From IMG/VR virus record IMGVR_UViG_3300025816_000007: a DNA stretch of 62,951 nt. One strand, given 5' to 3'. The stretch comes from an uncultured virus (IMG/VR IMGVR_UViG_3300025816_000007). Taxonomy: Duplodnaviria > Heunggongvirae > Uroviricota > Caudoviricetes. The translations under genes were made by a program, and so were the position numbers. The notes under the pieces are model-generated. The model was not told the origin of the DNA. It searched no databases and worked only from the letters and a program-made list of their open reading frames with translations. Position 1 is the first letter of the stretch, and each line of letters begins with the position of its first letter. Shown here piece by piece: positions 13,356 through 29,949 of the stretch.

Positions 13356-14105
13356 ATGGGAAAGGATTTATTGGAGAGTTCTCATACCAAGGGATTCATG
13401 ACATCTGCAAAATATTGGGGTCCCGAAAAAGGAGACTTGTTAATCACCAATGGAAAGGAAGTTATTGTCAATCATTGTTACTTATCTCTTGTCGAATCTA
13501 CTAAATTGATGGATTATGTAGTAAAAGGAACTCACCAAGGAAAACATATCAAAACTAGAATACCAGTTGAAGAATTAAACAATAACGGGTGGGCTTGGGT
13601 TAGAGAAAAGTTTCCATTCAAAATTGAATTTGTACTAATGCCTGGTACTTATCATGTAGTAGATCCAAATTCACAAACTTCTGTTGATGTAATAGCAAAA
13701 AATCCATCTATTGCCACAGCTAAAGCTTTGAGTTTCTTTGTCAATAATCCAAATGTTGATTTTGACGTGTCGCCTTATTTTTGTGTTCATGATTTGTATA
13801 AGGTCAGAATCACACCATCTGCTACAAAAATGGTTTCTTCTTTGAATCGGTCTATTACCATGGGGAAATTAGGCAGTGGGCCACTAGCAGATTGTTTCAA
13901 CCATCCAGTGAACAGAGAATCTTTACCAGAATTCAATAGGTTTGAATTGAAAAAATTGCAAAAAAAGGTTGAAGAGGCTTTTTATGAATTATACAAAAAT
14001 ATTGAGTGGATTTCCATTGGCGAAGCAAAAGCCTTTGATACGCAAGACTTTCAAATACATGAAATGATAGCGTCTGTTGATGGCAACATATCGATTTATG
14101 ACTGA
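13356..14105 (+). CDS. Hypothetical protein
   Basis: 249-aa ORF in operon. Confidence 0.7.
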   Translation: MGKDLLESSHTKGFMTSAKYWGPEKGDLLITNGKEVIVNHCYLSLVESTKLMDYVVKGTHQGKHIKTRIPVEELNNNGWAWVREKFPFKIEFVLMPGTYHVVDPNSQTSVDVIAKNPSIATAKALSFFVNNPNVDFDVSPYFCVHDLYKVRITPSATKMVSSLNRSITMGKLGSGPLADCFNHPVNRESLPEFNRFELKKLQKKVEEAFYELYKNIEWISIGEAKAFDTQDFQIHEMIASVDGNISIYD

Positions 14106-14520
14106 TGGCTCTCATTTATTCGCAAATAAGAAAATTGGTCGCTTTGAGCCTTCCACTGGCTACGGCTGGGTTTTGACGAAAAGGGGAAAGGATGGTTTTG
14201 CAAATAGACGATTTTTCAAGAGAATTGATGAAGATTTAACAAACAATGCCGCAGAATGGCTAGCAGTCATTGATGCTGTAAATTATGCAACACGCCATTT
14301 ACGTGACGCATTGAAGGTTGAGATACTTACTGATTCAGAGCTAGTTGTCAAACAGATTAATGGCGATTACCAAATCAAAGACGCCAAATTGAAAGAATAT
14401 TACAAGCAGTTAGACTCGATGAAATTAACTTTTGAATTAACTGTTAAGCACATATACCGTGAAAAAAATGCAGTTGCAGACTCCCTTTCAAAGCTCGGCT
14501 CCCTCATTAGATTTGAATAA
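14077..14520 (+). CDS. rnhA: Ribonuclease HI (archaeal-type)
   Basis: TDGS, TNNAAEWLA, TDSELVVKQINGDY, HIYREKNAVADSLS. Confidence 0.9.
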   Translation: MMATYRFMTDGSHLFANKKIGRFEPSTGYGWVLTKRGKDGFANRRFFKRIDEDLTNNAAEWLAVIDAVNYATRHLRDALKVEILTDSELVVKQINGDYQIKDAKLKEYYKQLDSMKLTFELTVKHIYREKNAVADSLSKLGSLIRFE

Positions 14521-14550: not shown

Positions 14551-15150
14551 ATGGCAGGCGAATGGGCAAAGCGATTTATCGGCATTGAAGGTAATGCAAC
14601 AGACCAAACTAGTGAAGATGATGATTTGACAACTTCTTTCTTAGAATCGATGAATGAAATCAAAGCTGAATTTGAGGCTTTGAAACAATCAAATGAGACA
14701 TTGTTTACTGCAATGCAAAATTTACTATCCGAACTCAATAGGCAAAATACAGAAGCAATCGTCAGCGCAAATAGTCAATTTATGCACTTGGTAATAAGAA
14801 AACTCGACGAGCTAGAAGAGCGTCTTAGTTCAGACGACCCAAGTTACACAAATGTATTGTATTCCAATCCAGAATTATTTAACGAAATCTCTGCAAGAAG
14901 TGAGGAAGATACAAACGAATTGTCTATTGCAGAAGAATTTGCTTCACAGAACATAATCGCTGAAATGGTAAAAGAAGAAAATCCAAATCTCTTAAATGAA
15001 GGGTATCAAGAAGAGTTTTTACCCGAAGTAATTGAAGGATTTAACAAGTGGCAGAACAAAGAAATAAAATGGTCTGATTTTGTCAAGATTGCCGGCGGAG
15101 TAAAAGCGGCTGGTAAGGTAAAAAGAATCATGACTTCCGATAATTCTTGA
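14551..15150 (+). CDS. Acidic coiled-coil protein
   Basis: 199-aa ORF. Confidence 0.7.
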   Translation: MAGEWAKRFIGIEGNATDQTSEDDDLTTSFLESMNEIKAEFEALKQSNETLFTAMQNLLSELNRQNTEAIVSANSQFMHLVIRKLDELEERLSSDDPSYTNVLYSNPELFNEISARSEEDTNELSIAEEFASQNIIAEMVKEENPNLLNEGYQEEFLPEVIEGFNKWQNKEIKWSDFVKIAGGVKAAGKVKRIMTSDNS

Positions 15151-17831
15151 GTCGTTATGCTCATAGGGTCAAACCACTTGGTAGATACATGAGCGAAGAC
15201 TTTACTCAGGATTTCCATTCACGTCTTCGAGAATTGAACCCTTACAAAGAGGTAAGTGATTTATTGCTACTTGAAGTTGCAATTAGATTAGGTGGGACGG
15301 ATGAGGGGGAAGCGTTTTATTCATCTTACCGTAAATCGGAAGAGGTTTCTGACAAACAGTTGATGTTGATGATTGAAGGTTTACACAAAATGCAAGGAGA
15401 TGACAAAATAGACCCTGGAACATCTGTCGGAATGATTGCTGCTCATTCTATATCAGAACCAATTACACAATCAATTATGAGAACTTTTCACTATGCTGGA
15501 ATTCTTACCAAAGCTTCCCCCTTAGTTGCGCTTAACGCAGATGTCAGCATGTCTGGGCCTCCTTATATGCGTCTTGCGATTGCCCTAAAACCACCATACA
15601 ACCAAGACTATGAATTGGCTAGATCATTTGCTTATAGACTAGGACGGCAGAAGTTAGGCGTTTTTGTCGAGATAATTCCAGACCACCCTGCGTATAGAGA
15701 GGGCAACATGATTGAAGAAAAACAAAGATTACAATACCAAATGAATAACTATTCAAAACCAAAATACAAAAAATATACAGATGCTGAATTCAAAAAGAAA
15801 AAGCAAAGATTAGAAAAAATAGGAATCATCTTAACAGACAAATTCTCAAATGAATATACAGACGAATACCAAAAGTTAGTTGATAAGAAAGGTAAGATGT
15901 ACAAGCAGAATGTTTCTGCAATGTTGGAAGCAGGTTCTAAGAATTCGGTGCTTTTTTACTTGAAAGAGGGTTCGGGAATAACTCATGGAGATTTAGAGCG
16001 TTGTATTGATAGGCAATTCAAAGAAGGTGATGGCTCATTTAGGACATTTGGTAAGCCAGAAGATCCACTTCATCTAATTTTTAAAAATGCAAAGATAAAC
16101 TCAATCAAAATAGAACTTGAAGGAAAAGTCCGTGAGGCCGTGTCATTGCACTTTCCAGGATTACCTCACCGATTATTTTTGAATTTGGTTGAAACGATTC
16201 GAGAAGCAGAATTGTGTAACAACTGTAATCACCCTGTAACAATTCCAAAGATGGTTGCACAGAATAACAAAACCAAAGAAGAAACTATCATCGAAGATTC
16301 AAAATGGGACACATCTGCACCGATTGATTCTTACTACAACAAAGTAGCAGAGACTTTGAAGATGGCTGGAATTAAATCAAATCCTCCAACAGAAGTTGAT
16401 TCTACAGGATTGATTGTTATTTCAAGTGAAGAATTTGGCGCACCTGGCAAGGGCATCACATTTCATACTGCAGATAAAAAAGAGCATAAAAGGTGCCCTA
16501 ATTGTAATCACGGTTGGATTAATTTATACCATGATGGATTCGCAAAAGGCAAGGTCAAAAAGGACATTGTTGTTGGCCCAAGGGTAAAGGAGTTTGATGA
16601 TGAGGACGGAAACAAACGATATACTGCCCCTGAAAACTACGACTCCTTTGCACTAATGGACAATGATGTTTTCACAAGAGATGAGGCCCCTAGTGCAATA
16701 TTTATTGATAGAGCAATTCAAAAAGTAAACAAAGAAGGTAAGCCCATGGTTTATCCTGGCTACATCGGCAAAGACGAACAGGGCGATGGAATCAGCGATT
16801 ATCCCCTACAACATACAGGCGACGGCGTAATGATTGCAACGGGCGCTGGCGGAGGTAATTTCGATGGCGAATACTTCTTGATTATAGCGCCTAGTTCTTT
16901 GGAACGGTTAGGCGATAGAACAAGTGGATTCATTGGGCAAGGAGGATATCTACGTGCTGTAAAAGTATTCGAAAGAGAAGTTGGCATCATGGACTTTAGC
17001 CGTACAACTTGTAACGATGTAAGGCAAGTTGAGAATGTACTGGGAATCGAGGCGGCAAGAACTGTATTATTGCATAATTTGATGGAATCCATCAATGATG
17101 CCGGAGAAACACACCTAAAACACGCTATGTTGCTTGCCGATTCAATGTGCGCCCACAACACCATACTAACCGCACCTGCTGGCAGAGGGTCTATTGCGGG
17201 ACTAAATTCACAAATGGGAAATCAAACCGTTGTAAAATCTGATGGTTCTTTTGAGCACTATGGTTCCGTATTAGCTCAAGCATACGAAAGACAAGTCGAG
17301 GTTCTTTTGAAGAGGTCGGTTCAAGGAATGAGAGACAATCTAGCCCACCCGAAATCTGCTGCTACTGTGGGCATGCCTTGGTCGGCAAAGGTTGGAACGC
17401 AAAGTGGAGTTGGTTCTGGTATTTTTTCTGCTGCTGATTATGAAGAAGTTATTGATTTGTATGTTAGAAAGGAACAAGGAGATAACAATGCTGGTTTCGA
17501 ATTAGAAGAGTTATTGAAAGGCAGGTCAAACACAATCACTATTCAAAACATCAAACAACATGCTGAATCTTTATTAAAGCAAATGGATACGATGGCATTC
17601 GAATTAGTTGGGAGAGGATGGAGTACAAATGCACAAAATCCCGAAACCGGCATTATTGATGTAGGATTATGGACAATACCGCCGGCTAACTACAACCCGT
17701 CTATTAGAATCCCTCACATGGAGGCAAGAGATAAAGTTCTTGCAAATGAAGAATTTTCGAAATTGTTTTCTGAATACAAAATTATACTAGAAATCACAGA
17801 ATATCTTCTTGAAAAGATTGGCATTCAGTAA
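15147..17831 (+). CDS. rpoA2: Divergent DNA-directed RNA polymerase subunit A'' homologue with large insertion
   Basis: PGTSVGMIAAHSISEPITQSIMRTFHYAG (trigger loop), CNDVRQVENVLGIEAAR, HAMLLADSM, SVLAQAYE. Confidence 0.85.
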   Translation: MSRYAHRVKPLGRYMSEDFTQDFHSRLRELNPYKEVSDLLLLEVAIRLGGTDEGEAFYSSYRKSEEVSDKQLMLMIEGLHKMQGDDKIDPGTSVGMIAAHSISEPITQSIMRTFHYAGILTKASPLVALNADVSMSGPPYMRLAIALKPPYNQDYELARSFAYRLGRQKLGVFVEIIPDHPAYREGNMIEEKQRLQYQMNNYSKPKYKKYTDAEFKKKKQRLEKIGIILTDKFSNEYTDEYQKLVDKKGKMYKQNVSAMLEAGSKNSVLFYLKEGSGITHGDLERCIDRQFKEGDGSFRTFGKPEDPLHLIFKNAKINSIKIELEGKVREAVSLHFPGLPHRLFLNLVETIREAELCNNCNHPVTIPKMVAQNNKTKEETIIEDSKWDTSAPIDSYYNKVAETLKMAGIKSNPPTEVDSTGLIVISSEEFGAPGKGITFHTADKKEHKRCPNCNHGWINLYHDGFAKGKVKKDIVVGPRVKEFDDEDGNKRYTAPENYDSFALMDNDVFTRDEAPSAIFIDRAIQKVNKEGKPMVYPGYIGKDEQGDGISDYPLQHTGDGVMIATGAGGGNFDGEYFLIIAPSSLERLGDRTSGFIGQGGYLRAVKVFEREVGIMDFSRTTCNDVRQVENVLGIEAARTVLLHNLMESINDAGETHLKHAMLLADSMCAHNTILTAPAGRGSIAGLNSQMGNQTVVKSDGSFEHYGSVLAQAYERQVEVLLKRSVQGMRDNLAHPKSAATVGMPWSAKVGTQSGVGSGIFSAADYEEVIDLYVRKEQGDNNAGFELEELLKGRSNTITIQNIKQHAESLLKQMDTMAFELVGRGWSTNAQNPETGIIDVGLWTIPPANYNPSIRIPHMEARDKVLANEEFSKLFSEYKIILEITEYLLEKIGIQ

Positions 17832-18081: not shown

Positions 18082-18122
18082 ACCCCGACTTTACAATGGC
18101 AAAAAAACACCCCGACTTTACA
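18082..18122 (-). repeat. 14-bp direct repeat ACCCCGACTTTACA x2 before a TATA-like element
   Basis: 18082-18095 and 18109-18122. Confidence 0.7.
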
Positions 18123-18125
18123 GAG

Positions 18126-18234
18126 GCCAAAAAAAAATATGGGGAGGACACGGCTCATCTCGTGGTGAACCAGTAGCTCCAGCCTCCTTACAGAGGAAAA
18201 TGTCCTATTACCTTACCAAGAACCCATGTTTAAT
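18126..18234 (-). terminator. Structured small unit ending in T9GG; end of the array
   Basis: Stems ATGGG/CCCAT, AGGACA/TGTCCT, GGTTCA/TGAGCC, then T-run. Confidence 0.55.
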
Positions 18235-18608
18235 TATTTACGAATTAGCCAGTTGAAAAACAGTTTATCTTCGTCTGCTAAATGATATTGACAGATTGTT
18301 ACAAACCTATCCTTTCCTTCAAACCATCTAGCGTATTGTTCTTGCAGCCATGAATCATTCAAAGCCTTTTGAACATCAATTTCCATTTTTTCTGCATCAT
18401 CGGACCACACCCCGTTTCCGTTGATTGACACCATCTCTTGTAACGATGCCTCATCAAATCTACACCTTGGGTGTGTTGCATAAAATTCAGCAAACCCATC
18501 AGCGCCGTTGTTCATATTCCATTTTTCCATCAGCATTCTGAATGCTTTGTAAATTATCTTATCTAATACCTTACCTGTTTGATTCAAACCCTCATATAAC
18601 GATTCCAT
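18234..18608 (-). CDS. Hypothetical protein
   Basis: ORF starting at motif ATG. Confidence 0.7.
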   Translation of the reverse strand: MESLYEGLNQTGKVLDKIIYKAFRMLMEKWNMNNGADGFAEFYATHPRCRFDEASLQEMVSINGNGVWSDDAEKMEIDVQKALNDSWLQEQYARWFEGKDRFVTICQYHLADEDKLFFNWLIRK

Positions 18609-18610
18609 GT

Positions 18611-18832
18611 TCAATGTGCGATTACCCCTAGTACAATGAAGCGTTCATGCACCGGAATATATTTCCCGTCCCACACAAGTTCAAGGTGTGGGATATCATT
18701 AATACCTGGGCAAATAATCACTTTTTTTGTCAATGCCTCATGTGCGTTCTTTCCAGACAATTTTCCCTTCTCAGGGTGTGTAAATCTATGTCCACAGAAA
18801 ACGCATTCAAGTTCAAACTCAAACTTTGGCAT
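18611..18832 (-). CDS. Small Cys-containing (Zn-binding?) protein
   Basis: CVFC...CPG; stop within motif. Confidence 0.6.
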   Translation of the reverse strand: MPKFEFELECVFCGHRFTHPEKGKLSGKNAHEALTKKVIICPGINDIPHLELVWDGKYIPVHERFIVLGVIAH

Positions 18833-19196
18833 AATATTTACACCCTTCTAATTCTTCTTTTATCACGCTCGGTATACGATCTCCTAATTCATCAACAATA
18901 TCATAATACCATTTTGGCGCATAGTCGAGAAGGTGTTTGTTGCCTTCTAATTGCCAAGTCAAGTATGTCGCCCCTATCTTTGCGGCTTCTTTGCCCTTAA
19001 CTAACAAAACTGTATCTATTCTTTTTAGACCCATATATTCAATGTACCCATATAGTTCAATATTTTTTTTCGCTATTCCCAAGGCTAACCTCAATAAGTC
19101 TCGAAGTCCGTCTAGGTCGTCACAGTTACCCAAAGTGTAAGGTATAACCATGGCGACATAATCTTTCAGTTCATCTTGTGTCAATTTCGCCTCCAT
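18819..19196 (-). CDS. Hypothetical protein
   Basis: ORF from motif ATG. Confidence 0.7.
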   Translation of the reverse strand: MEAKLTQDELKDYVAMVIPYTLGNCDDLDGLRDLLRLALGIAKKNIELYGYIEYMGLKRIDTVLLVKGKEAAKIGATYLTWQLEGNKHLLDYAPKWYYDIVDELGDRIPSVIKEELEGCKYYAKV

Positions 19197-19198
19197 GT

Positions 19199-19369
19199 TC
19201 AATCTAAATGCAATATTTCGCCACACTTAGGGCATTCTAAGTTCCCGTTATCCATCGTTTGGAAATACCGTGGCTTTTTGCATTTGTGACATTCAATCGG
19301 ATAACCTTTATCTTCCACCTTAACTAGGTGTTTTGGATTTCTTCTAGGGTGCTTATCAGACCATTTCAT
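19199..19369 (-). CDS. Zinc-ribbon protein, 56 aa (not in ORF track)
   Basis: MKWSDKHP...CHKC...CPKC..LHLD*, running from motif variant to motif. Confidence 0.7.
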   Translation of the reverse strand: MKWSDKHPRRNPKHLVKVEDKGYPIECHKCKKPRYFQTMDNGNLECPKCGEILHLD

Positions 19370-19371
19370 GT

Positions 19372-19608
19372 TCAAATTCTCCTTATTATCTTCGCATTCT
19401 TGTGGTTGTATTCGCCAGTGTATTCAAAATTAGGATTTTTGGTTAGCCAAGTCGACAAACTTTGAGTACAAGGCATAGTCCTTAGACTTCTATAATTTCC
19501 ATCAAATGTTCTTTTCTGGTACATCAAATCAATTATGCCCGACGCACTAGACTCGAAACCAGGTTCTGTTATTTTTATACAGAAATCAATAATCCCTTGT
19601 TTCGTCAA
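19372..19608 (-). CDS. Hypothetical protein
   Basis: TTGA overlap start with GGAGG upstream. Confidence 0.6.
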   Translation of the reverse strand: MTKQGIIDFCIKITEPGFESSASGIIDLMYQKRTFDGNYRSLRTMPCTQSLSTWLTKNPNFEYTGEYNHKNAKIIRRI

Positions 19609-19865
19609 ACCTTTGCCTCCAAATCCTCTCTACTCCACCATATTTTGATAACCTCAACTCGATCACGTAGTTTACCGTATGACCGTATTTGAGATTCAAT
19701 CGGCAAACCACTTCCCGCACCTGACTTTACCTCGATAATTTCACTTATTTCGTGTTCATCAAGCGGGGTGCTTTCCAAAATGCCTATGAAATGGTCGTAT
19801 TCGTCCCATTCCATCTCGGCTACTTTTCCACACTCATAATGTATTTCTAACCAAGTTTCGTCCAT
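19605..19865 (-). CDS. Hypothetical protein
   Basis: ORF from motif ATG. Confidence 0.65.
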   Translation of the reverse strand: MDETWLEIHYECGKVAEMEWDEYDHFIGILESTPLDEHEISEIIEVKSGAGSGLPIESQIRSYGKLRDRVEVIKIWWSREDLEAKV

Positions 19866-19867
19866 GT

Positions 19868-20710
19868 TCAATTTGCTATAACCATCAATTCTTTTGGCGT
19901 AGCATTTGCTCTATTATCAAAATCAAACCAGTTAAACAGGCTATAACACCATCCGGACATACAACCGTCCTCTTGACCTTCGCCCTCATTCCAAAGTCTA
20001 ACATCACTCATAATTTCACTAATTTTCTGTTCTTCATCTATTAACTCTTGACTGATTCTATCAATCACAGAAAATCGTAATTCGAATGACAACTTTTCGT
20101 ATGTTTTCAATTCAAATTCCAATTCTTCTGCTGTGTCTTTTATTGAGTCCCAAAGATGGCAACAATGACAACTAGCGGAAGGTGAACCATACGCCTTTTC
20201 ATACTCTGCCCATGATTTCGCAGGTCCTAGATAACTACTGTGTTGTACAAGACCTAACCCCCAAATATCTTCATGCACACAAATCAACTTAGCTTTGGTT
20301 TTACCAGTCGTTAGTGCAATCAATTCTAATTCATCAGGTGTTTTTTCACAGTAAAACGAGTCGTCACCATGCCAATTTTCCTCATCGTAGTAACAATGGC
20401 CTTCTTTCCATAGCCATTCTGCAGTATATCCTCCCCAACCACAACACGATACAATAAAATCCACACCTGTTCCAAAATACTTTTGCAATTGTGCCTTTGT
20501 ATAATGGACATCTGCGTGTTCGTGACACCCTGATTCGATATTAATTACTGCAAATTTATATTCTTTTTTCAGTTTTTTTTCACATTCTCTGCCAATCGGA
20601 GATTTTCTGCTTGATTCTAATTTGTATTTCTTTTTACAAAGTAAACAAGCATCAAACTCCTTTGCATCATACACGTGTTCTACAAAACCTTTATCTTCAA
20701 ATAAATTCAT
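19868..20710 (-). CDS. Protein with N-terminal DUF6011-like Zn finger
   Basis: CLLCKK...S..SPIGRECEKK. Confidence 0.65.
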   Translation of the reverse strand: MNLFEDKGFVEHVYDAKEFDACLLCKKKYKLESSRKSPIGRECEKKLKKEYKFAVINIESGCHEHADVHYTKAQLQKYFGTGVDFIVSCCGWGGYTAEWLWKEGHCYYDEENWHGDDSFYCEKTPDELELIALTTGKTKAKLICVHEDIWGLGLVQHSSYLGPAKSWAEYEKAYGSPSASCHCCHLWDSIKDTAEELEFELKTYEKLSFELRFSVIDRISQELIDEEQKISEIMSDVRLWNEGEGQEDGCMSGWCYSLFNWFDFDNRANATPKELMVIAN

Positions 20711-20712
20711 GT

Positions 20713-21762
20713 TCAATCTGCACTATTTTGAATTCTTTCAATGTGCTCTTTAATCGTAAGCCTTCTTTTTTCATCTCCAATAACAAACTTGTGCTGTATC
20801 AAAGTTGCTTTCCCATGCTTGTTTACGCCTTTTTCAATGCAGGCGGACTCACCACAAAAACCAGTAACATACGGTTGTCGGTGATGTCCATGATTGCATC
20901 GACCACCTTTGTTTAGTGGTTCGCCTGCTTCATGCCATAGCACATGCTTATCGATTTTGTAAAAATTTTCTTCAATCTTTAATGCCTCTTTTAGTCCAAT
21001 ACCATCAGATTCTACAAGGCGATCTATCTCCCAATCTGACAACCAAGGGCACCACATACATGATGACTTGGCTACTGGTGAACCATCGCCTTTGTAATCC
21101 CAATTCATGTGTTTTAGGATATCAAGGCAATCTTCCCTTGTCAAATTCATTTCAATCAGCGGATACAGGAATTCGTGTCCTGTTCTATCGTCCGACATCT
21201 TTGCTCGGTTCATTGTGAACCTCTTGTGTCTTTTACTTTCATTAGCTTCTATACCCAAGCTCCAAATCTTCAATGATTCTGGAAACTTTTCATCTGCCCA
21301 TTTCCTTTGTACACCACCTTTGAACTTATCAGAACATACGTGGCTTGCACCTGGAAGCATAGGCAAAACGCTAGAATCCGTCAACCATTCGTGAATGGTA
21401 TAAGGCTCAACAACATAACGAAATTGATTTTTCGATATATCATCTAAACTTCTGTACTCCTTTACCCTAATTCTATCATTAGTAATTTTATGCCGATAGA
21501 ATCCTTGCTTAAATTGTAATATCTCAAGGTCTAGGCCTTTGTCATAACAAAGGCGTTCAGCATATTCTATGTTTTCATAAGTCTCAGGCCATTCTGAACC
21601 TGGGTCTGCGAATACAACATAGTCATAATCTGGTATGTACTTTCTTAATTCTTTAACTGTAATTCCTAAATATTCTGCAGCTTTCTTTGGCTCTAGGTTC
21701 ATCGCTAAAATTGCGCTAGAGTCAACTCCTCCTCCAAAACTCAAAAAGTTTATTTCGTTCAT
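20713..21762 (-). CDS. PAPS reductase-family (PP-loop) protein
   Basis: LSFGGGVDSSA, FADPGSEWPETY, YPLIE, KSSCMWCP. Confidence 0.8.
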   Translation of the reverse strand: MNEINFLSFGGGVDSSAILAMNLEPKKAAEYLGITVKELRKYIPDYDYVVFADPGSEWPETYENIEYAERLCYDKGLDLEILQFKQGFYRHKITNDRIRVKEYRSLDDISKNQFRYVVEPYTIHEWLTDSSVLPMLPGASHVCSDKFKGGVQRKWADEKFPESLKIWSLGIEANESKRHKRFTMNRAKMSDDRTGHEFLYPLIEMNLTREDCLDILKHMNWDYKGDGSPVAKSSCMWCPWLSDWEIDRLVESDGIGLKEALKIEENFYKIDKHVLWHEAGEPLNKGGRCNHGHHRQPYVTGFCGESACIEKGVNKHGKATLIQHKFVIGDEKRRLTIKEHIERIQNSAD

Positions 21763-21764
21763 GT

Positions 21765-22109
21765 TCAATCGGAGTTCCTATTCCAATGGTTAGTCACTCG
21801 CCTGTAACTGGTGTGTTTCAATCCGTCTTTCTTTGATTCAATCCAGCCTTTTTTTGCGGCATGTTGCACGAAGCCCTTTACTTTGGCGTTCTCCAACATT
21901 GACGCTGGCGCCTGTAATTCTTTTCGTATTTGCCTTATGCTTTTCCAACGATCATCAATGGCTAACAAAACTAATGCAAAGTCAGTCAACATGTATTGTT
22001 TGTTGAAACCGCCTTGTTTCCAGGACATGTCTAAAGTTACATTTATTGCACTAACGAATCCTGATTTATGCGTCACATCTATCTTTTTCTTAGTAAACGG
22101 TTCTTCCAT
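21765..22109 (-). CDS. Hypothetical, winged-helix-like
   Basis: ORF motif to motif. Confidence 0.6.
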   Translation of the reverse strand: MEEPFTKKKIDVTHKSGFVSAINVTLDMSWKQGGFNKQYMLTDFALVLLAIDDRWKSIRQIRKELQAPASMLENAKVKGFVQHAAKKGWIESKKDGLKHTSYRRVTNHWNRNSD

Positions 22110-22111
22110 GT

Positions 22112-22972
22112 TCAATAATCACTTTCGATTCTAGGAGCCAAAAAGAATTGTACATACAATTTTCTTTCTGATTCATACCCGAAATCCCAGTTAACTGATA
22201 TACTTATCGGGTAATTATCTCCTGATTCAATCGTAATTTGTTGTTTCTTCAATGCTTTTGCAATACCATGGAGGTAGCTCAAACTAAATTGAGATCTTGA
22301 CCTTCCATTTTCATGCTTTGCAGTTTCGTTATTTAGTTCTGTAGATACCGAAGTCGAGTTTTCACTTTGCCCTTTGATTGTAGAAGTTATTAGTTTCCCA
22401 TCTTCAATCTCAATGAGCATCAAATCTGCAACTGACTTGCATAGTTCAACTTTATTCAGGAAATCTTCACCCGACAGCGTAACTTTTGCTGGCAAACTCA
22501 TTTGTGGCACATTAGGCCAACTCATTGCATTAGACAGAAGATTGTAGCTTACGACCTTCTTCTTATCTTCGCTTTCATTCACAATTGTAAGATGTTTTTT
22601 ATCGTTATTGATGTGTATATCTAGCATTTCAGCGTAAGTCTTAGCATCTCCTCTGCCAGTAGCCTTACCCCACTTTGCTTTCTTCATCAAGTTTAGAACA
22701 TTCTTAACATCAATGTCAACTCTCTGCGCCATTCCTAAGTTGTGTAACGGTTTTGCACCGTAATTTACGTGAACCATCGAAATGTGCGATGGGTCGACTA
22801 ATTTGCATTCAATCAATCCATCACAAAACGCTATCTTTGCATCGCAATTTACTACATTTAAAACCTCTAATACAGTCATTAATTCTATTCCTGGAATCTT
22901 TACTTCCAAGTCTCCATAATTTACTGAATTTTCAGCAATCTTATCTTTAACCTTCTTTTTACTAACTACCAT
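22112..22972 (-). CDS. pcn: DNA polymerase sliding clamp (PCNA)
   Basis: VDPSHISMV, SQFSLSYL, GDNYPI, C-terminal FFLAPRIE. Confidence 0.9.
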   Translation of the reverse strand: MVVSKKKVKDKIAENSVNYGDLEVKIPGIELMTVLEVLNVVNCDAKIAFCDGLIECKLVDPSHISMVHVNYGAKPLHNLGMAQRVDIDVKNVLNLMKKAKWGKATGRGDAKTYAEMLDIHINNDKKHLTIVNESEDKKKVVSYNLLSNAMSWPNVPQMSLPAKVTLSGEDFLNKVELCKSVADLMLIEIEDGKLITSTIKGQSENSTSVSTELNNETAKHENGRSRSQFSLSYLHGIAKALKKQQITIESGDNYPISISVNWDFGYESERKLYVQFFLAPRIESDY

Positions 22973-22974
22973 GT

Positions 22975-23127
22975 TCAATTTATCAGTTTAGAATAAATCC
23001 ATGCAAACGGGATTACTAGCATAGCTACGATGATTATAACGACAGCTAATGGCAGTTCCAAAAAGAGTATTCTCTTCACTGACATGTCCCTGTATCGCTT
23101 TCCATCAATCATCGATGTGCTATCCAT
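22975..23127 (-). CDS. Small membrane protein, 50 aa
   Basis: Hand-translated; ILFLELPLAVVIIVAMLVIPFAWIY; stop in motif. Confidence 0.55.
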   Translation of the reverse strand: MDSTSMIDGKRYRDMSVKRILFLELPLAVVIIIVAMLVIPFAWIYSKLIN

Positions 23128-23128
23128 T

Positions 23129-23425
23129 TCAGTCCCTAGCCCAAACCAAATTCAATACTGGTGCTTTTTCGTTATCGCTATTGTTTTTGAATGCAATAAT
23201 TTTAACATTTGCTGGAATTGTAATTTCCTTTGTAATCCACTTCTCTGCAAAAACCTTTGAATCATGCCTGACATTTCCATCTTTGTCTTTTGGCTTCCAT
23301 AGCCCACAGATTTCCTTGTATCGTGTGTTCTCTGTCATCATAAGTTTATGCGCTGCTTCTTGAAATGATATTCCTTCCTCTTTAACAATTTCTTCAACCT
23401 TTTCCAAATATACTTCATATTCCAT
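23129..23425 (-). CDS. Hypothetical protein
   Basis: ORF from motif ATG. Confidence 0.65.
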   Translation of the reverse strand: MEYEVYLEKVEEIVKEEGISFQEAAHKLMMTENTRYKEICGLWKPKDKDGNVRHDSKVFAEKWITKEITIPANVKIIAFKNNSDNEKAPVLNLVWARD

Positions 23426-23427
23426 GT

Positions 23428-23745
23428 TTAATCACCCTTATGTCTTAGGTGTAACGAACTAAGCCAAAAAATCTTTCGTATTTCTTTATCTGTAAACTCG
23501 ATATTGTTAATTTTGAGAGACACCGGTATTCTTGGTATTTCCACATTAGAATTCATATTATCATCTAAGTATTCTATAAAACGATCTTCTTCTTCAAATA
23601 TCGGTAAATGTGTTGCATAATTAAATAAATGCATATCACACCATAGCCTTATTGCTACATTCCCTATCATCTTATGCTCATTAGCCTCATCGAAAGGCCT
23701 TCTATCTGCTGTTTTCATTTTCTCAATCAACTTGTCTTCCTTCAC
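23428..23745 (-). CDS. Hypothetical protein (GTG start in motif variant ATTGAACGTG)
   Basis: ORF motif variant to motif. Confidence 0.6.
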   Translation of the reverse strand: MKEDKLIEKMKTADRRPFDEANEHKMIGNVAIRLWCDMHLFNYATHLPIFEEEDRFIEYLDDNMNSNVEIPRIPVSLKINNIEFTDKEIRKIFWLSSLHLRHKGD

Positions 23746-23747
23746 GT

Positions 23748-24059
23748 TCAATGTAATTCGTTTGGATTTATGATTGCTACATCGCCCACAAGAATTGTGA
23801 ATCCTTTGTGTGCCTGATTACCTTCCCATAGAATCCTTGTAGCAGCGTCATTTGGAGGTTTGCCCCTCAAATCGCCCTCTTCATCCATTATCATTAGTTT
23901 CTCTACCCCATCAACCATAACAGGCAGAGTTGTTACATATGTGCATTTGCAGATATCATACAACTCTTCTAATTTGTAGAATTGTCCTTTAGGAACTATG
24001 TCTTCTATCACTTGCTGTTCTGTTTCCTCATTAATCTCTGTTCGTATAACTAATCCCAT
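23748..24059 (-). CDS. DUF3846-like protein
   Basis: YKLEELY..C, MIMDEEG.L...PPNDAAT, ILVGDVAI. Confidence 0.7.
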   Translation of the reverse strand: MGLVIRTEINEETEQQVIEDIVPKGQFYKLEELYDICKCTYVTTLPVMVDGVEKLMIMDEEGDLRGKPPNDAATRILWEGNQAHKGFTILVGDVAIINPNELH

Positions 24060-24061
24060 GT

Positions 24062-24364
24062 TCAATATCTTGGGTCGCCCCAATTCTCCATATCGATTCT
24101 GTGTTGGTTATCTGAATTTGATTGAGACCTGTCAATCATGTAATCCCAATCAATGTCCAGGTTTTCTAGTGCCTCTACAATCAACTGTGCATCCTTCTTT
24201 CCGTCTCTTTCGTTACTTTTCCCAACAAATGTATGCTCTGGTAGCGGTTCTTCTGCGTATTCCGCAACAGATTTCTTGAAATCTTTAATTTCTTTTCTAA
24301 TCCTATATACTTGACTTAATAACATCTCATAATGCTTTATATCACCGTAGTTACTTTCTTCCAT
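24062..24364 (-). CDS. Hypothetical protein
   Basis: ORF motif to motif. Confidence 0.65.
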   Translation of the reverse strand: MEESNYGDIKHYEMLLSQVYRIRKEIKDFKKSVAEYAEEPLPEHTFVGKSNERDGKKDAQLIVEALENLDIDWDYMIDRSQSNSDNQHRIDMENWGDPRY

Positions 24365-24366
24365 GT

Positions 24367-24771
24367 TCAATCATCTCCTTCCTCGTAGTGTCCTTTGAAA
24401 GCCTCTTTCAATTCAGCCTCATTCATGTTGAGTAACTTCTCATGCCAAAAAGCAATTTCTTCTTCTTGGCTGCCTCCTGTTCCCGATAGGCGTATGGCAT
24501 CCCATAACAAGTCCAACTCTTTCTTTTGGCTTATTTGGGGTCGTCTTGAGAGTCGTAGGCTTTCCTTACCGGCTTCCCAAATTTCTTCAATCGTATCTTT
24601 CGCACGTTCCAATTTCAACCAATATTCATCGCCCTCGAATTTTCCCAATAATTCTTCGAAGACACTTTCATGATGGTCTTCAAATGCAAGTGTATTCCCC
24701 CAAGATAACGCCATTTCAGCTACTTTCAAATCCAATTCATATTCCTTATCCAATTCATATTCCTTATCCAT
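24367..24771 (-). CDS. Acidic hypothetical protein with N-terminal DKEYEL duplication
   Basis: ORF motif to motif. Confidence 0.65.
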   Translation of the reverse strand: MDKEYELDKEYELDLKVAEMALSWGNTLAFEDHHESVFEELLGKFEGDEYWLKLERAKDTIEEIWEAGKESLRLSRRPQISQKKELDLLWDAIRLSGTGGSQEEEIAFWHEKLLNMNEAELKEAFKGHYEEGDD

Positions 24772-24773
24772 GT

Positions 24774-24986
24774 TCAATTCCAAACCTCGTGTTGGGTTCT
24801 TAGCACATGAATGCAATGTCCCAATTTCACTTCTGGTATTTCCTCATTTCCTTCCAGTATAGCAACTGCATATCCCATAGATTGTTGTTGGTCTAAGCCT
24901 TTCCTCATTCCTTTCATCATAGCTCTAATAATCATGGAATATTGTAAATCAGATTCTGTCTCAATTTCTCCTTTGTATGTTACCAT
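24774..24986 (-). CDS. Hypothetical protein
   Basis: ORF motif to motif. Confidence 0.6.
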   Translation of the reverse strand: MVTYKGEIETESDLQYSMIIRAMMKGMRKGLDQQQSMGYAVAILEGNEEIPEVKLGHCIHVLRTQHEVWN

Positions 24987-24992
24987 GTTCAA

Positions 24993-25922
24993 TCATAATA
25001 GCAATTTGACTCCATTTTCTGGATTCATCAATCTCATAATTACCTCTAGCGGGCCGAAGGTCAATTTTCCCCCTGCGCCTTGCTTTGTTTTGTAATTGAG
25101 GCTACTTTCTTCGTTTTCACAATTAATGCAGAAGGTAAATGATAATCCCCATGGGATTACCGCCCTTTCTGCGGGATCTTTGATTCCTTGTGTTCCTCTT
25201 TGTGTTCCCCTTGGTGCTAATTCCCACCTTCGAGGTTCAGGCCATAACATATCAATAGGGAATACTCCCCACATATCTGTTGGCTTTTGAGGCCTTCTTT
25301 GTTGTAAATCGCCACCAGACCAAGATGCAAAATAAGTTGTTAGAGTTGGATATTTCCATACCTTTCTCAACATTCCACGTGGATTCTCCATCGACCAATA
25401 CCTAGGATTGATTTCTTGAATCATGTCATGTATGTGATGCACTAATAATAGCGAATTTTCTGCAAACTCTGTTTTTGGAGAGTATGTGTTTTTCGCCCAA
25501 TGAGTGCCACAACTAGCTACACTAAACCCTTGACAAGGGGGTGATGCTAGTATTATGTCCCAATCTCTTCCCAGGTCGTCAACGGATAATTCCATTATGT
25601 CAGCGCATATATCTGGTTCGAACTTAGGGTCAATATCTATTGTAACCACATAATGTCCTCTTTCAGCAAACGCTTTGCTCCAACCTTTTTTGCCACAACA
25701 CAAATCTAACACTCTCAGTTTCTTTGTGTGCTGCTTGTATTCCGGTGCTAATTCTTTTCCTTCTGGATCTAAAATCGTCCTAATATCTGTAGCAAACTTC
25801 CAGCGACACTTCGTATGTATCCAATTACCATCTGACAATTGAATAGCTCTTGAGCCGCTTCGGATTGTTTTACCACAGCACAAACATTCCTGTTTTTGTC
25901 CTAATGTTCCGAATTCTATCAT
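24993..25922 (-). CDS. C5-cytosine DNA methyltransferase-like with N-terminal Zn finger
   Basis: VLDLCCGKKGWS, ASPPCQGFS, MENP, QKPT. Confidence 0.85.
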   Translation of the reverse strand: MIEFGTLGQKQECLCCGKTIRSGSRAIQLSDGNWIHTKCRWKFATDIRTILDPEGKELAPEYKQHTKKLRVLDLCCGKKGWSKAFAERGHYVVTIDIDPKFEPDICADIMELSVDDLGRDWDIILASPPCQGFSVASCGTHWAKNTYSPKTEFAENSLLLVHHIHDMIQEINPRYWSMENPRGMLRKVWKYPTLTTYFASWSGGDLQQRRPQKPTDMWGVFPIDMLWPEPRRWELAPRGTQRGTQGIKDPAERAVIPWGLSFTFCINCENEESSLNYKTKQGAGGKLTFGPLEVIMRLMNPENGVKLLL

Positions 25923-25924
25923 GT

Positions 25925-26125
25925 TCAATTGTCGACTATCACCACAGTCGCTCCCCAATCTTCTCCCAACGCTACTATCTTCGGTATGCAACCTTCACAC
26001 ATCCAATCTCCAAATGCGCCATCTTGCCATGTATGGGTCGTTAGGTTGTCGCAACCTCTAAAATTACATTTTGGAATCCAATCTATTCGTTGTTCAACAG
26101 GGCACCATTTCTTAATTATTACCAT
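25925..26125 (-). CDS. Small Cys-rich protein
   Basis: ORF motif to motif. Confidence 0.6.
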   Translation of the reverse strand: MVIIKKWCPVEQRIDWIPKCNFRGCDNLTTHTWQDGAFGDWMCEGCIPKIVALGEDWGATVVIVDN

Positions 26126-26158
26126 GTTCAATCTTTCTCTAAGGCATCTTGTATTTCA

Positions 26159-26398
26159 TCAGTCAAAGCGACATAGGCTGTAAATGTGTTCAAACAGTTC
26201 CCGACCTTCTTCTGTATATCCAGTAGGTTCTTCGTCTGAACAAATGACATTTCCATCTTTGTCTAAACTGTAAACTTGTGCCTCCATGTCGAATAATTCA
26301 ATCATACGATTGATTATTTGGTCTGCAGTCTCACAAGCAAACTGTATCTTTGTGCTATCTTCCCACAATCCGTTTGCGTCTTCTATTTGTGTTTCCAT
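26159..26398 (-). CDS. Hypothetical protein
   Basis: ORF from motif ATG. Confidence 0.6.
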   Translation of the reverse strand: METQIEDANGLWEDSTKIQFACETADQIINRMIELFDMEAQVYSLDKDGNVICSDEEPTGYTEEGRELFEHIYSLCRFD

Positions 26399-26400
26399 GT

Positions 26401-26607
26401 TCAATCAACTATCGATTCTCCCCTCATGATTTTAAATACCCATGAAGGAGGGCACCAGCCCCCGTTTTGCTCTGATTCCGGTTTTAGAATCAAGTACATC
26501 TGCATTGCACCCGTCAAAAAGTCAGCTTCACTAACATTGCTTTTGCCAACGTGCCTTTTCCTATCTCTAAGCGCCTCTTCTACTGCTTCTTTCAATTCCT
26601 TTTCCAT
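26401..26607 (-). CDS. Hypothetical protein
   Basis: ORF motif to motif. Confidence 0.65.
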   Translation of the reverse strand: MEKELKEAVEEALRDRKRHVGKSNVSEADFLTGAMQMYLILKPESEQNGGWCPPSWVFKIMRGESIVD

Positions 26608-26609
26608 GT

Positions 26610-27005
26610 TTAATATTGCAAAATCGTATCTCCCTCTGTCATTAATTTGCAGAGTTGTCCATCAAACATGAACACATAAGAGCCTACATCCATTTCCCAT
26701 GGCTCAAAGAAAATCGTCGTGTCTAATGCTATGACGATTGTAATTTCATCGCCAGCCATCATGTTCACGAACTCTTCTTTGAATTCTATTTGTCTTACAA
26801 TTTCACCAGTTCTTCTGTTGGGAACTTTCCATTTCCCATTGTTAATATCCTTTAAGTCAGCAAATGTGCCGACCTTCCAACATTTCTTTCCAAATTTAAT
26901 GGGTTCTCCGCCATTTATTGTAACAGTGGAGTGTGATGAAATATGTTCATCAGCACTCAATCTCTTGCTCCAAGGTCTTAGAATTTCATCTACCTGATTT
27001 TTCAT
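26610..27005 (-). CDS. Hypothetical protein
   Basis: ORF motif to motif. Confidence 0.65.
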   Translation of the reverse strand: MKNQVDEILRPWSKRLSADEHISSHSTVTINGGEPIKFGKKCWKVGTFADLKDINNGKWKVPNRRTGEIVRQIEFKEEFVNMMAGDEITIVIALDTTIFFEPWEMDVGSYVFMFDGQLCKLMTEGDTILQY

Positions 27006-27007
27006 GT

Positions 27008-27229
27008 TCAATTTTCTTCATGCATAATGCTATGCACTCTTGAATAGGCCGTTATAGAATATTCTGCTCCGCATTCATCTTCGTCGCCCATTTGCCCTGT
27101 AGCCTCGCAAGTATAATCAAAATTAAACTCTAAGTTTTCTCCATCTTGACTAATTGTAGCACTATCTATATCTAATTCTACAAAACATTGCTGCCCGCAT
27201 TCATCACATCTAAAGTTATAATCTACCAT
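27008..27229 (-). CDS. Small Zn-binding protein
   Basis: CDEC...C...CGAEY; motif to motif. Confidence 0.6.
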   Translation of the reverse strand: MVDYNFRCDECGQQCFVELDIDSATISQDGENLEFNFDYTCEATGQMGDEDECGAEYSITAYSRVHSIMHEEN

Positions 27230-27231
27230 GT

Positions 27232-27615
27232 TCAATCTTTATTCAGTAACTTTTGTCCGCATGAATCGCAATACAATTCATCTAACTCGTCCACTACTTC
27301 TTTAATCACATCAGGTTTTGTTTTATCTCTGCTGAAAGTCCAATCTGCAACAGGAACCCGATCACAATACTTGTCGCCAGTTAGCATGAACTTAGCTGAT
27401 TGCTCTTTATCGTCTTTCTGAAAAGTCACCCAAGTTTCCTCATAATTCAGTGATTGATAAGCTACATCTTCTGCAACTGTCACATCTATGCCCGAATTCT
27501 TGATAACATCGTCTCCTCCCCAAGACTTCATTGCAGTTACGACATATCCTCTGCTAAACATCTTTTTTATAAAATCTTCTAATCCTTCAAGTCCAAAAAA
27601 TTTCAACCTTCTCAT
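27232..27615 (-). CDS. Hypothetical protein
   Basis: ORF motif to motif. Confidence 0.65.
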   Translation of the reverse strand: MRRLKFFGLEGLEDFIKKMFSRGYVVTAMKSWGGDDVIKNSGIDVTVAEDVAYQSLNYEETWVTFQKDDKEQSAKFMLTGDKYCDRVPVADWTFSRDKTKPDVIKEVVDELDELYCDSCGQKLLNKD

Positions 27616-27617
27616 GT

Positions 27618-27932
27618 TCAATCGTCAAGGTCAACCACCACCTGCTCAAGTATTAAGTTTCGACACTCATACCATTCCATGTTGCTCGGTTTTCCTTCAA
27701 GCATTTCAACCACGAACTTTAATTCATCACGCAACCGCTTGACTTCTGCTCGCTCATCCATGAGTGCTTGAAGAAGAATTGGTGCGTCTGCCATCAGTTG
27801 TGCGTTTGCTTTGTTCTCCATATCCACAAAATCATGAGGCATACCGCCCCACTTAATGATAAGACCCACCCCATCGTCATCAACATGCCATTCTCCTTCT
27901 GTATGTCCTTCGTATTTGTCTGTGTCAATCAT
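27618..27932 (-). CDS. Phage-type hypothetical (HTxGxW...ANAQLMADAP)
   Basis: Pattern common in phage proteins; ATGA overlap. Confidence 0.65.
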   Translation of the reverse strand: MIDTDKYEGHTEGEWHVDDDGVGLIIKWGGMPHDFVDMENKANAQLMADAPILLQALMDERAEVKRLRDELKFVVEMLEGKPSNMEWYECRNLILEQVVVDLDD

Positions 27933-28078
27933 TCAATCACTTCCTGTCTTACAAACTTTACAACTGTATCACTAAAACGCCATTCAAATGATTCGCCATC
28001 ATCCAATAGTTGTTTAAACAAATCAATATCATGTTCAGTAATTGGTATTGTTATTCTTCTCATTCGTTTTGCCTCCAT
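27929..28078 (-). CDS. Small protein, 49 aa
   Basis: Hand-translated MEAKRMRRITIPITEHD... from motif ATG. Confidence 0.55.
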   Translation of the reverse strand: MEAKRMRRITIPITEHDIDLFKQLLDDGESFEWRFSDTVVKFVRQEVIE

Positions 28079-28080
28079 GT

Positions 28081-28551
28081 TCAATTTGTTCCAAATCCCC
28101 CTAGTGCATCCATCACAATTTGCAATCCTTGAACTGCCTTATTTTCGACTTCTATTGAGTCTCCATTGTGTTTTATGTATGCTTCTTTGAATAATTCTAA
28201 ATCTAATTTTTCTTTCAAGTGTTCATAGATTTGTTTCTCTTTCTTTCGAGAACGCCTCTTCCTTTCATCTATTGTCAGCCTAGCACCTGCAGAGGCTTTG
28301 CCTAATACAAACGCTTCTGTCATCCAACCGTAGCCATCGCCATTGGTATGCCAACTCAATTCTGTTTCATTTACTCTAATGTAAATTCCTTTTCCTTTTT
28401 GGTAATCGACTTTTACTGCAGCGTATTTTCCTCGAACAACTCTTAATGTGTCTGTGCCAGGAACCTTTTCTTCTACATCTCCAATCTTGATTACCATTCG
28501 ATTTTTGCCATCCATGTATTCTCTTTCTTTCAAATCATACTCTCTTTCCAT
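28081..28551 (-). CDS. Hypothetical protein
   Basis: ORF motif to motif. Confidence 0.7.
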   Translation of the reverse strand: MEREYDLKEREYMDGKNRMVIKIGDVEEKVPGTDTLRVVRGKYAAVKVDYQKGKGIYIRVNETELSWHTNGDGYGWMTEAFVLGKASAGARLTIDERKRRSRKKEKQIYEHLKEKLDLELFKEAYIKHNGDSIEVENKAVQGLQIVMDALGGFGTN

Positions 28552-28553
28552 GT

Positions 28554-28856
28554 TCAATCTTCCCACAAGTAACCTTGTAGTTTAATTAGCGGTTTGGCTT
28601 CTATCTTCATGCCTTCAAAAGTTCCATCGTAACGGCAATCAATTGTCCAACTCCCACCTTCATGCTCTGTTATAGCTTCTGAAAGTGAATCGCCGGCTCT
28701 ATCATACCATTCGCTAGTTTCTTCGTCATAATTGTCATATTTGTCTTTCATAATATCTAAAGCGAATTTCACAGGATCGGGTCTTTCTGCCTCCCTGTAA
28801 ACAAACACTTCTCCATCATGCATATCATAACCAAAAATTATCCAATCTTCATCCAT
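28554..28856 (-). CDS. Acidic hypothetical protein
   Basis: ORF motif to motif. Confidence 0.65.
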   Translation of the reverse strand: MDEDWIIFGYDMHDGEVFVYREAERPDPVKFALDIMKDKYDNYDEETSEWYDRAGDSLSEAITEHEGGSWTIDCRYDGTFEGMKIEAKPLIKLQGYLWED

Positions 28857-28858
28857 GT

Positions 28859-29947: not shown

Positions 29948-29949
29948 GT

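Follow-up and report, generated by a model that had tools for sequence, protein, structure and literature searches.

An enlarged A''/Rpo1C-like RNA polymerase subunit gene beside arrays of heptamer-led genes in an uncultured virus-like element

In euryarchaea, the largest subunit of RNA polymerase (RNAP) is naturally split into two polypeptides, A' and A''. The window analyzed here, by which we mean the whole 62,951-nucleotide stretch of IMG/VR record IMGVR_UViG_3300025816_000007 from an uncultured virus (Caudoviricetes), carries a gene at 15189..17831 (+) whose product is a homolog of archaeal A''/Rpo1C with an insertion of ~360 residues and a tail of ~150 residues. Next to it lies a convergent array of genes, most of them preceded by a seven-nucleotide motif (heptamer). 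The protein shares with the archaeal subunit (TIGR02389, PF04998) a homologous N-terminal trigger-loop block and a homologous C-terminal block, and the two align structurally at Z 12.5. It differs in length (391–397 amino acids (aa) in solved Rpo1C chains versus 880–894 aa here, with the insertion and the tail), in forming a separate clade, and in the setting of its gene, which sits outside any rpo operon.

Other known systems resemble this locus in part. Cyanobacterial and plastid RpoC2 likewise represents the C-terminal portion of a largest subunit (beta') encoded in two pieces, and it has been enlarged by a lineage-specific insertion. The RpoC2 insertions, however, belong to the cell's own enzyme and sit inside the trigger loop, whereas the one described here follows the trigger loop and the start of the jaw, in a gene that belongs to a mobile element. 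Rudivirus TFB homologs, sigma-like factors, T4 AsiA/MotA, and the RNAP inhibitors of archaeal viruses all divert a host polymerase without a whole polymerase being encoded, but these are accessory factors or inhibitors rather than a core subunit of the catalytic cleft, and we know of no described case of a virus that supplies such a core subunit. The poxvirus late promoter TAAATG offers a parallel to the heptamer, as a short element that includes ATG and marks the RNA start of one gene class. Poxviruses, in contrast, bring along a complete polymerase, and the heptamer, a putative marker of RNA 5' ends, varies by lineage.

In PMC9501531, archaeal viruses are described as polymerase-less and as using host promoters with a TATA box and B recognition element (TATA/BRE), and TFB homologs are said to occur in some of them. 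For magrovirus group D, one sentence names a "DNA-dependent RNA polymerase A" and proposes no function for it (Philosof et al. 2017, PMC5434244). According to a later study, group D is without structural genes and may be plasmid-like (Xu et al. 2023). Beyond that one sentence, the passages of the literature that we searched yielded no account of an A''-only family, of heptamer arrays, or of what the group D "RNA polymerase A" does.

The gene and the parts of its product are as follows.

15189..17831 (+), stop codon included: enlarged A''/Rpo1C-like gene, from Pfam, NCBIfam, solved chains, alignment, and model
15468..15500 (+): trigger-loop motif QSIMRTFHYAG, residues 108–118, matched to the corresponding segment in Rpo1C and Rpb1 chains
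15897..16982 (+): family-specific insertion, approximately residues 251–612 (~360 aa), a gap in the rpoA2 model alignment with no residues in cellular sequences
16215..16226 (+): CNNC, first cysteine pair (C357, C360), invariant in 16/16 and 9/9 aligned family members
16494..16505 (+): CPNC, second cysteine pair (C450, C453), with an invariant G-W after it, from two family alignments
17037..17147 (+): conserved C-terminal Rpo1C block, VLGIEAAR to HAMLLADSM, from the translation, solved chains, and family alignment
17382..17828 (+): helical C-terminal extension, approximately residues 746–894 (~150 aa), with no Rpo1C counterpart, from the structure model and alignment

The open frame spans 15147..17831 (+) and encodes 894 aa when counted from the TTG at 15147. 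Homologs begin with MSED in the family alignment, which corresponds to the ATG at 15189 (residue 15), and this ATG is therefore the likely true start. A sequence-only reading of the window had pointed out the trigger-loop and C-terminal motifs, the two cysteine pairs between them, a spacing of about 500 aa, and a size beyond the usual Rpo1C of roughly 400 aa, and all of these are present. The translation holds ITQSIMRTFHYAGIL at residues 106–120, VLGIEAAR and HAMLLADSM occupy residues 631–638 and 659–667, and 512 residues separate the trigger-loop motif from VLGIEAAR. The homology goes well past what chance would give. Pfam RNA_pol_Rpb1_5 (PF04998, Rpb1 domain 5) matches the protein at E 5.9e-22. 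The NCBIfam model rpoA2 (TIGR02389) does so at E 1.1e-30 (106.9 bits, below its equivalog cut-off of 420.65), with model positions 16–203 of 367 falling on residues 63–250 and a second match at residues 613–687; a weak rpoC2 match is limited to the trigger-loop segment. The closest solved chains are those of archaeal Rpo1C, matched over residues 61–121 and 614–689, and the next best are eukaryotic Rpb1, RPC1, and RPA1. An AlphaFold model of the whole protein, built from 16 sequences and used solely to confirm the Rpo1C/Rpb1 core, is mediocre (predicted local distance difference test (pLDDT) 59.5). Its best matches are nevertheless Pol II Rpb1 and archaeal Rpo1C; the VIA-align comparison with Rpo1C chain 7ok0_C (Z 12.5) aligned 296/393 residues over model residues 21–710. 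The insertion folded alone reached a mean pLDDT of 44, too poor for a fold search. Its four cysteines probably form a zinc site.

The enlarged protein has relatives of its own kind. A word-indexed search returned 15 full-length relatives of 852–980 aa at 28–95% identity, all metagenomic, and in a profile search only 21 sequences among 1.84 billion representatives reached E<=1e-30, with ordinary Rpo1C beginning at ~1e-30. The four cysteines, trigger-loop residues R112–G118, VLGIEA-R, and AQAYERQ are invariant in the family alignment (n=16), and M111, R112, and H115 of the trigger loop are kept. Against a 95%-identical copy (L023), the ratio of nonsynonymous to synonymous substitution rates (dN/dS) is 0.078 for the N block, 0.068 for the insertion, 0.025 for the C block, and 0.021 for the tail. 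Purifying selection is thus strong in each of the four. Nor does the protein nest among cellular Rpo1C with a known lineage-specific insertion, as the earlier reading had considered. In a FastTree phylogeny (169 conserved columns, 93/95 sequences, two having been dropped for poor coverage), 24/24 viral sequences group together (support 0.99), apart from 69 cellular and eukaryotic sequences whose cellular members are the top scorers of the profile search and hence a biased sample. The latter comprise 52 unnamed cellular sequences (340–520 aa), six named DPANN sequences, and 11 long ones, mostly eukaryotic-type Rpb1-like and including one named archaeal full-length subunit. Support for the viral clade falls to 0.90 once a full-length Rpo1 from a magrovirus group-D-like contig (G004) is added on a very long branch (2.39); the Rpo1 of a second such contig (G006) is not among the tips, most likely having been dropped by an occupancy filter. 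The enlarged type was not found in 185,579 species genomes, where the six confirmed matches are ordinary DPANN genes (Micrarchaeota, Altiarchaeota, Undinarchaeota) that share RTFHYAG[VI]L, and tblastn gave no match in GenBank phages. A search for shorter homologs returned fragments and no named Rpo1C, and cluster names for the ten top cellular matches are mostly absent, the few present being Diapherotrites. From these sequence comparisons, the A''-like proteins can be regarded as a distinct conserved family and not as ordinary cellular Rpo1C.

Among the DPANN genomes, four loci in Micrarchaeota metagenome-assembled genomes (L017, L018, L019, L022) have frames of 1129–1293 aa with A'-like sequence at the start, and Rpo1 seems to be unsplit there. 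The Altiarchaeota and Undinarchaeota copies of Rpo1C are split (366 and 369 aa).

Families could be assigned to a minority of window genes, namely RusA, RNase H, Mom, Dam, N4/N6 and C5 methylases, a PAPS-reductase-like protein, and DUF6011; the window looks viral from this content. Outside the array it is collinear with two further IMG/VR records, G001 (here G1; 128,784 bp) and G002 (G2; 127,570 bp), which carry terminal repeats in direct orientation and are rated 100% complete by CheckV, and it amounts to about half of such a ~128 kb genome. Both complete relatives encode a group II chaperonin (Cpn60_TCP1), a serine recombinase (Resolvase), glycosyltransferases, and giant proteins of 2100–3000 aa, and a terminase-like ATPase was recognized; a family B DNA polymerase (PF00136) matched in 0/2. 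Among named cellular matches, those nearest to the G1 thermosome are from Poseidoniales and Thermoplasmatota, at ~35% identity. Thermosome similarity has been used in print for assigning hosts to marine Group II (MG-II) viruses (PMC5332604, PMC5434244), and the host is probably an MG-II (Poseidoniales) archaeon. Two marine metatranscriptome runs from one study contain short contigs identical to part of the A''-like gene (16417–16718) and to parts of array genes, some crossing gene junctions; these show presence only, with no starts, ends, or strand, and DNA carry-over is possible.

The other parts of an RNAP were sought both in the window and in the complete relatives. In a Pfam scan of the 101 other open reading frames (ORFs) of the window, no RNAP family reached E<=0.001. 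By tblastn, the RpoH-like and TFB-like proteins of the relatives matched nothing in the window better than E 0.5, and no A' remnant was seen in the ORF upstream of the A''-like gene. Rpb1 domain 2 (PF00623) and Rpb2 domain 6 (PF00562) matched 0/2 complete relatives but 14/14 control genomes. A DFDGD-type motif is absent from every called protein of the window, G1, and G2, and the only two DxDGD strings lie in proteins of 159 and 56 aa. PDB sequence searches with three large neighbor proteins gave no RNAP match. The statement that the window holds no other RNAP subunit thus stands at the sensitivity used. "Lone" is apt for the window but not for the relatives. G1 encodes an RpoH/Rpb5_C-like protein of 98 aa, with E 2.3e-6 in Pfam (above cut-off) and E 2.1e-8 to subunit H in NCBIfam, a weak TFIIB/TFB-like protein lies just past the array head in G1 and G2 (Pfam E 1.8e-3 and 7.9e-5; NCBIfam E 1.4e-3 in G1), and a TFIIS-type zinc ribbon is found within a giant G2 protein. 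A complex prediction for the A''-like and RpoH-like proteins of G1 scored 0.00, which speaks neither for nor against binding.

Because no A', B, or DxDGD catalytic subunit is detectable by sequence in the complete relatives, the protein cannot, on this evidence, belong to a self-sufficient polymerase. These genomes could still encode a complete multisubunit RNAP diverged beyond recognition, as in phiKZ-like and crAss-like phages, with the partners hidden among large unassigned proteins. There are many large ORFs without a family to choose from (892, 520, and 513 aa in the window, 900–3000 aa in G1 and G2). However, the catalytic motif is missing, the same two domain models recognized every control genome, and the three neighbor proteins match no RNAP chain in the PDB by sequence. 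Since the A''-like part is easily recognized (E 1e-30), any hidden partners must have diverged much further than it has, and we regard this possibility as very improbable.

Since the trigger loop is constrained and the genome provides no catalytic partner, the protein would have to work with the host's A', B, and small subunits. A foreign A'' could slot in because the euryarchaeal Rpo1 is split into A' and A''. The evidence leans modestly toward a virus-borne, swap-in replacement for the host A''/Rpo1C subunit. That part of the earlier proposal, a subunit that may redirect host RNAP, remains the best-fitting reading, given the missing catalytic partners, the purifying selection, and the non-cellular clade; assembly with host subunits is a step that we infer. 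After infection, the viral A'' would join host A', B, and the small subunits, and in some lineages a viral RpoH-like subunit would join as well, with a viral TFB-like factor available. A'' and H touch in archaeal RNAP, and the RpoH-like gene of G1 would fit a viral A''-H sub-assembly. The product would be a virus-modified polymerase with a catalytically competent trigger loop that serves the viral program, including the ~44 kb array, and whose Rpb1-jaw face bears ~360 extra residues, a four-cysteine site, and a helical tail. If true, a virus supplying a single core subunit that lines the active site would represent a new mode of transcription takeover and a natural experiment in modular RNAP assembly.

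A subunit of this kind could also act as a decoy or dominant-negative, binding host A' or RpoH to give a dead or stalled polymerase and shut off host transcription. The absence of catalytic partners from the complete relatives would suit such a role, as would the replacement of the G-x-PR segment past the trigger loop, and inhibition of host RNAP is known from archaeal viruses (PMC9501531). However, a virus without its own polymerase depends on the host enzyme. The invariance of R112, T113, F114, H115, Y116, A117, and G118 despite divergence to ~30% identity would be needless for a decoy, as would the low dN/dS throughout the protein. We consider this role improbable.

Several observations weigh against a replacement subunit. 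In the post-trigger-loop segment, SPLVALNADVS stands in place of the cellular G-x-PR motif, so catalytic competence is not assured. An RpoH-like gene was sought in G2 and none was found, leaving 1/2 complete relatives with one; the TFB-like matches fall short of the curated cut-offs, and for the one in G2 the PDB gave no match. Large unassigned proteins near the gene, compared by sequence only, could be unrecognized partners. In addition, a terminase-like ATPase but no capsid protein was recognized in the complete relatives, and the element may be a virus or a plasmid.

Two thermosome-bearing IMG/VR contigs, G004 (72.8 kb) and G006 (110 kb), place this family in a wider setting. Both encode a full-length Rpo1 (1608 and 1611 aa) with Rpb1 domains 1–5 and the catalytic motif NADFDGD or NADYDGD, apparently active, which is convergent with PolB and near the resolvase gene (L077:2165-6988 (+) in G004, L078:2378-7210 (+) in G006). 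Rpb2 domain 6 was not found on either contig, so a lone largest subunit appears to be a theme in the group. As these contigs are 52% and 79% complete, the gene for a B subunit could be in the missing part, a further point against our reading. Directly upstream of the Rpo1 gene, G004 has an RNase H gene, and one also lies upstream of the A''-like gene in the window.

14080..14520 (+): RNase H-like gene, upstream of the A''-like gene, with the same order in G2 and in group-D-like G004

By gene content, G004 and G006 fit the description of magrovirus group D. The window family resembles group D in being marine and MG-II-associated and in combining thermosome and resolvase genes with one for a largest subunit of archaeal type, the first two genes being present in G1 and G2 beyond the extent of the window; the order RNase H then Rpo1, seen in G004 and the window, is a further likeness. 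However, the group-D-like contigs have a full-length Rpo1 and PolB and no heptamer arrays, whereas the window family has A'' only, no PolB, and arrays. This contrast, with whole Rpo1 in related elements and A'' only in the window family, bears on the evolution of split largest subunits. The two closed genomes also provide a thermosome, a resolvase, and an Rpo1-type gene like those of magrovirus group D, whose nature has been undecided since 2017.

The array beside the gene, and the heptamers found beside its relatives, are as follows.

18225..62206 (-): array of ~86 called genes, ~44 kb, with 83 ATT[G/A/T]AAC directly before ATG, convergent with and abutting the A''-like gene
Window: ATT[G/A/T]AAC, before ATG 83 times on the array (-) strand and once on the + strand
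G1: ACTGACC, 61 copies before ATG, 60 of them on one strand
G2: ACC[G/A]CTC, 98 copies before ATG, all on one strand
L024 and L025: ATTGAAC, 5–6 copies before ATG
L026: ATTT[G/A]AC, 23 copies before ATG
Ten loci of the 28–33% identity clade: ACTGAAC, 4–25 copies each before ATG

The array is real, as had been claimed. ATTDAACATG occurs 84 times in the window versus 1.56 expected (maximum 4 in 100 shuffles), and 83/84 copies lie on the - strand between 18225 and 62206; the ATG of the motif is the start codon, and the TTG inside it is a spurious start. In each of the three genomes (window, G1, G2), array and A''-like gene converge, and the array starts 0.4–1.6 kb past the stop of that gene. Counting as testable a locus with at least 2 kb of downstream flank, and as an array a given heptamer standing before ATG at least four times on the strand opposite the gene, we found arrays beside the gene in 16/17 testable loci (13/14 metagenome loci plus the window, G1, and G2). 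The exception, L029, has two copies of ATTGAGG, and four loci with shorter flanks (L023, L040, L041, L049) have two heptamer copies each. These figures cover 27/34 metagenome loci; L050–L056, six weak and apparently cellular matches and one short fragment, were left out. No heptamer array was found in the contigs with full-length Rpo1 (G004 and G006; 0/2) or in fragment G003. The A''-like gene and the arrays therefore co-occur, a link that is correlative only. The proposed link to the ATTDAACATG sites is upheld as co-occurrence, but the exact motif is specific to one lineage and was not found in G1 or G2. Moreover, as a single family with conserved gene order is being compared, shared ancestry would give this pattern just as a functional link would.

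Along the A'' tree, the heptamer sequence shifts in steps. Within the arrays (18.2–62.2 kb in the window, 73.7–113.9 kb in G1, 11.9–56.7 kb in G2), shared genes, up to 83% identical, occur in shuffled order and each carries its own genome's heptamer. The arrays behave like fast-turnover cassette regions. Because the motif differs between lineages, it points to a signal read by something virus-encoded, and such lineage-specific heptamers offer a directly testable signal in abundant, uncultured ocean archaea.

The motif precedes 80%–93% of called array genes. The heptamer is followed by ATG in 48/58 (window, ATTGAAC), 60/67 (G1), and 87/97 copies (G2) and by A in 55/58, 62/67, and 95/97, and the copies without ATG stand before hairpins and non-coding stretches. 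Upstream of heptamer-led genes, positions -45 to -8 show neither conservation nor a TATA-like A/T peak. Shine-Dalgarno-like 5-mers precede 5/64, 5/47, and 4/64 heptamer-led genes versus 8/35, 34/100, and 40/98 non-array genes, a comparison in which random windows give 4–5% and gene calls are crude. The heptamer does not look like a ribosome-binding site; its likeliest role is to set the 5' terminus of leaderless mRNAs, as an initiator or a processing site. Known initiators have a pyrimidine at -1 and A at +1, and the context of the heptamer agrees with this.

Three other roles for the heptamer were rejected: a Shine-Dalgarno site (it is unlike GGAGGTGATC and differs between lineages), a recombinase site (no conserved flank), and pairing with an antisense or guide RNA bearing its complement (no extended complementarity at the few + strand copies).

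The arrays may have nothing to do with the A''-like gene, the heptamer being a translation re-initiation or RNA-processing signal for another viral factor and the adjacency a matter of conserved gene order. The complete confounding of co-occurrence with phylogeny fits this view, as do the scarcity of Shine-Dalgarno-like words and the missing TATA-like signal upstream of heptamer-led genes. On the other hand, the heptamer plus A also precedes hairpins and a structured, non-coding RNA, which disfavors a purely translational role, and a lineage-specific motif is what would be expected for the signal of a virus-encoded factor. We judge it possible but rather unlikely that the arrays are unrelated to the gene. 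That a polymerase modified by the replacement subunit is needed for the heptamer-led genes is a tentative proposal, to which we give clearly less than an even chance. It is very doubtful that the A'' insertion itself reads the heptamer. The part of A'' that bears it, the Rpb1 jaw, presumably faces downstream DNA and not -7 to -1, whereas B-reader elements of the TFB family approach -8 to +2. With the insertion facing downstream DNA, a TFB-like factor would be at least as good a reader of the heptamer.

In its fullest form, the replacement reading would have viral A'', with or without RpoH, and a TFB-like factor remake host RNAP, with its jaw and trigger-loop module exchanged, so that it starts, free of TATA/BRE, at a 7-nucleotide initiator touching the ATG. 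Leaderless mRNAs would then be made for 60–100 genes, along with structured leader RNAs, and the initiator would co-evolve with the viral parts in the manner of T7-group promoters. We put this full conversion forward as an unlikely scheme.

Structured RNA and terminator-like features mark the two ends of the array.

61065-61900 and 62207-62806 (-), together spanning 61065..62806: two non-coding structured stretches at the array head, with folding z scores of -6.5 and -6.7 versus shuffles
18101..18137 (-): T9 and T7 runs after a hairpin at the distal array end, read directly in the sequence

Both non-coding stretches begin just after a heptamer plus A. The equivalent array-head regions of G1 (L008:13885-14700 (-)) and G2 (L012:16765-17600 (-)) have z scores of -7.2 and -6.3, and the window and G1 stretches share exact blocks of 18 and 14 nt, GGATAAAATGATGCCATC and ATAATTGAGTCCAG. 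Rfam gave 0 matches on the window at gathering thresholds and, by E-value on 60900–62951, a chance-level isrD match only (E 0.61). These stretches may be a new structured leader RNA.

Oligo-T acts as a terminator in archaea, and the T9 and T7 runs look like archaeal terminators. Selection against oligo-T terminators inside the arrays was considered and none was seen: runs of at least six T number 12, 5, and 10 in the three arrays versus 7.7, 4.3, and 5.9 expected, and thus are not depleted. Some heptamer-less array genes overlap their upstream neighbor, which implies polycistronic RNA. These observations bear on the idea that the viral A'' has an elongation role in the host polymerase, either processivity or anti-termination over the ~44 kb array or resistance to an RNAP inhibitor of host or viral origin, with no recognition of the heptamer. 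The position of the insertion at the Rpb1 jaw, which we take to lie on the downstream-DNA side, would suit such a role, as would the polycistronic RNA and the T runs at the array end. However, the undepleted T runs within the arrays give no sign of selection against terminators, and an elongation role is a version of the swap-in reading more than a true alternative to it. We think it distinctly unlikely.

The last heptamer-ATG of the array, at 18225–18234 (-), opens a frame of only four codons (MGSW). It is followed by the hairpin and T runs and then by a heptamer 22 nt upstream of a conserved 74 aa gene at 17825–18049.

Other features of the element lie outside these subjects. The divergent intergenic region 7740–8045, between a - strand block (1–7739) and a + strand block (8046 on), contains ~6 copies of GGCATTG(T), which look like operator sites. 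Adjoining them, 6393–7739 encodes a protein of 448 aa that has a winged-helix motif (ArsR/MarR-type) at its N terminus. In the DNA runs, ~190 bp at 27750–27940 have a depth of 157 versus 25 around them, with many alternative joints and loose ends, and this segment appears to be either a short element common to many genomes of the sample or a hypervariable one. Giant proteins of 1600–2460 aa with mixed modules are encoded at L014:8517-15893 (-) in G2, L004:9899-16351 (-) in G1, and L060 in G2. One combines an ATP-dependent DNA ligase, a TFIIS zinc ribbon, and DUF5824, others contain guanylate kinase, DUF7831, and DUF5754, and these multi-module proteins may be polyproteins.

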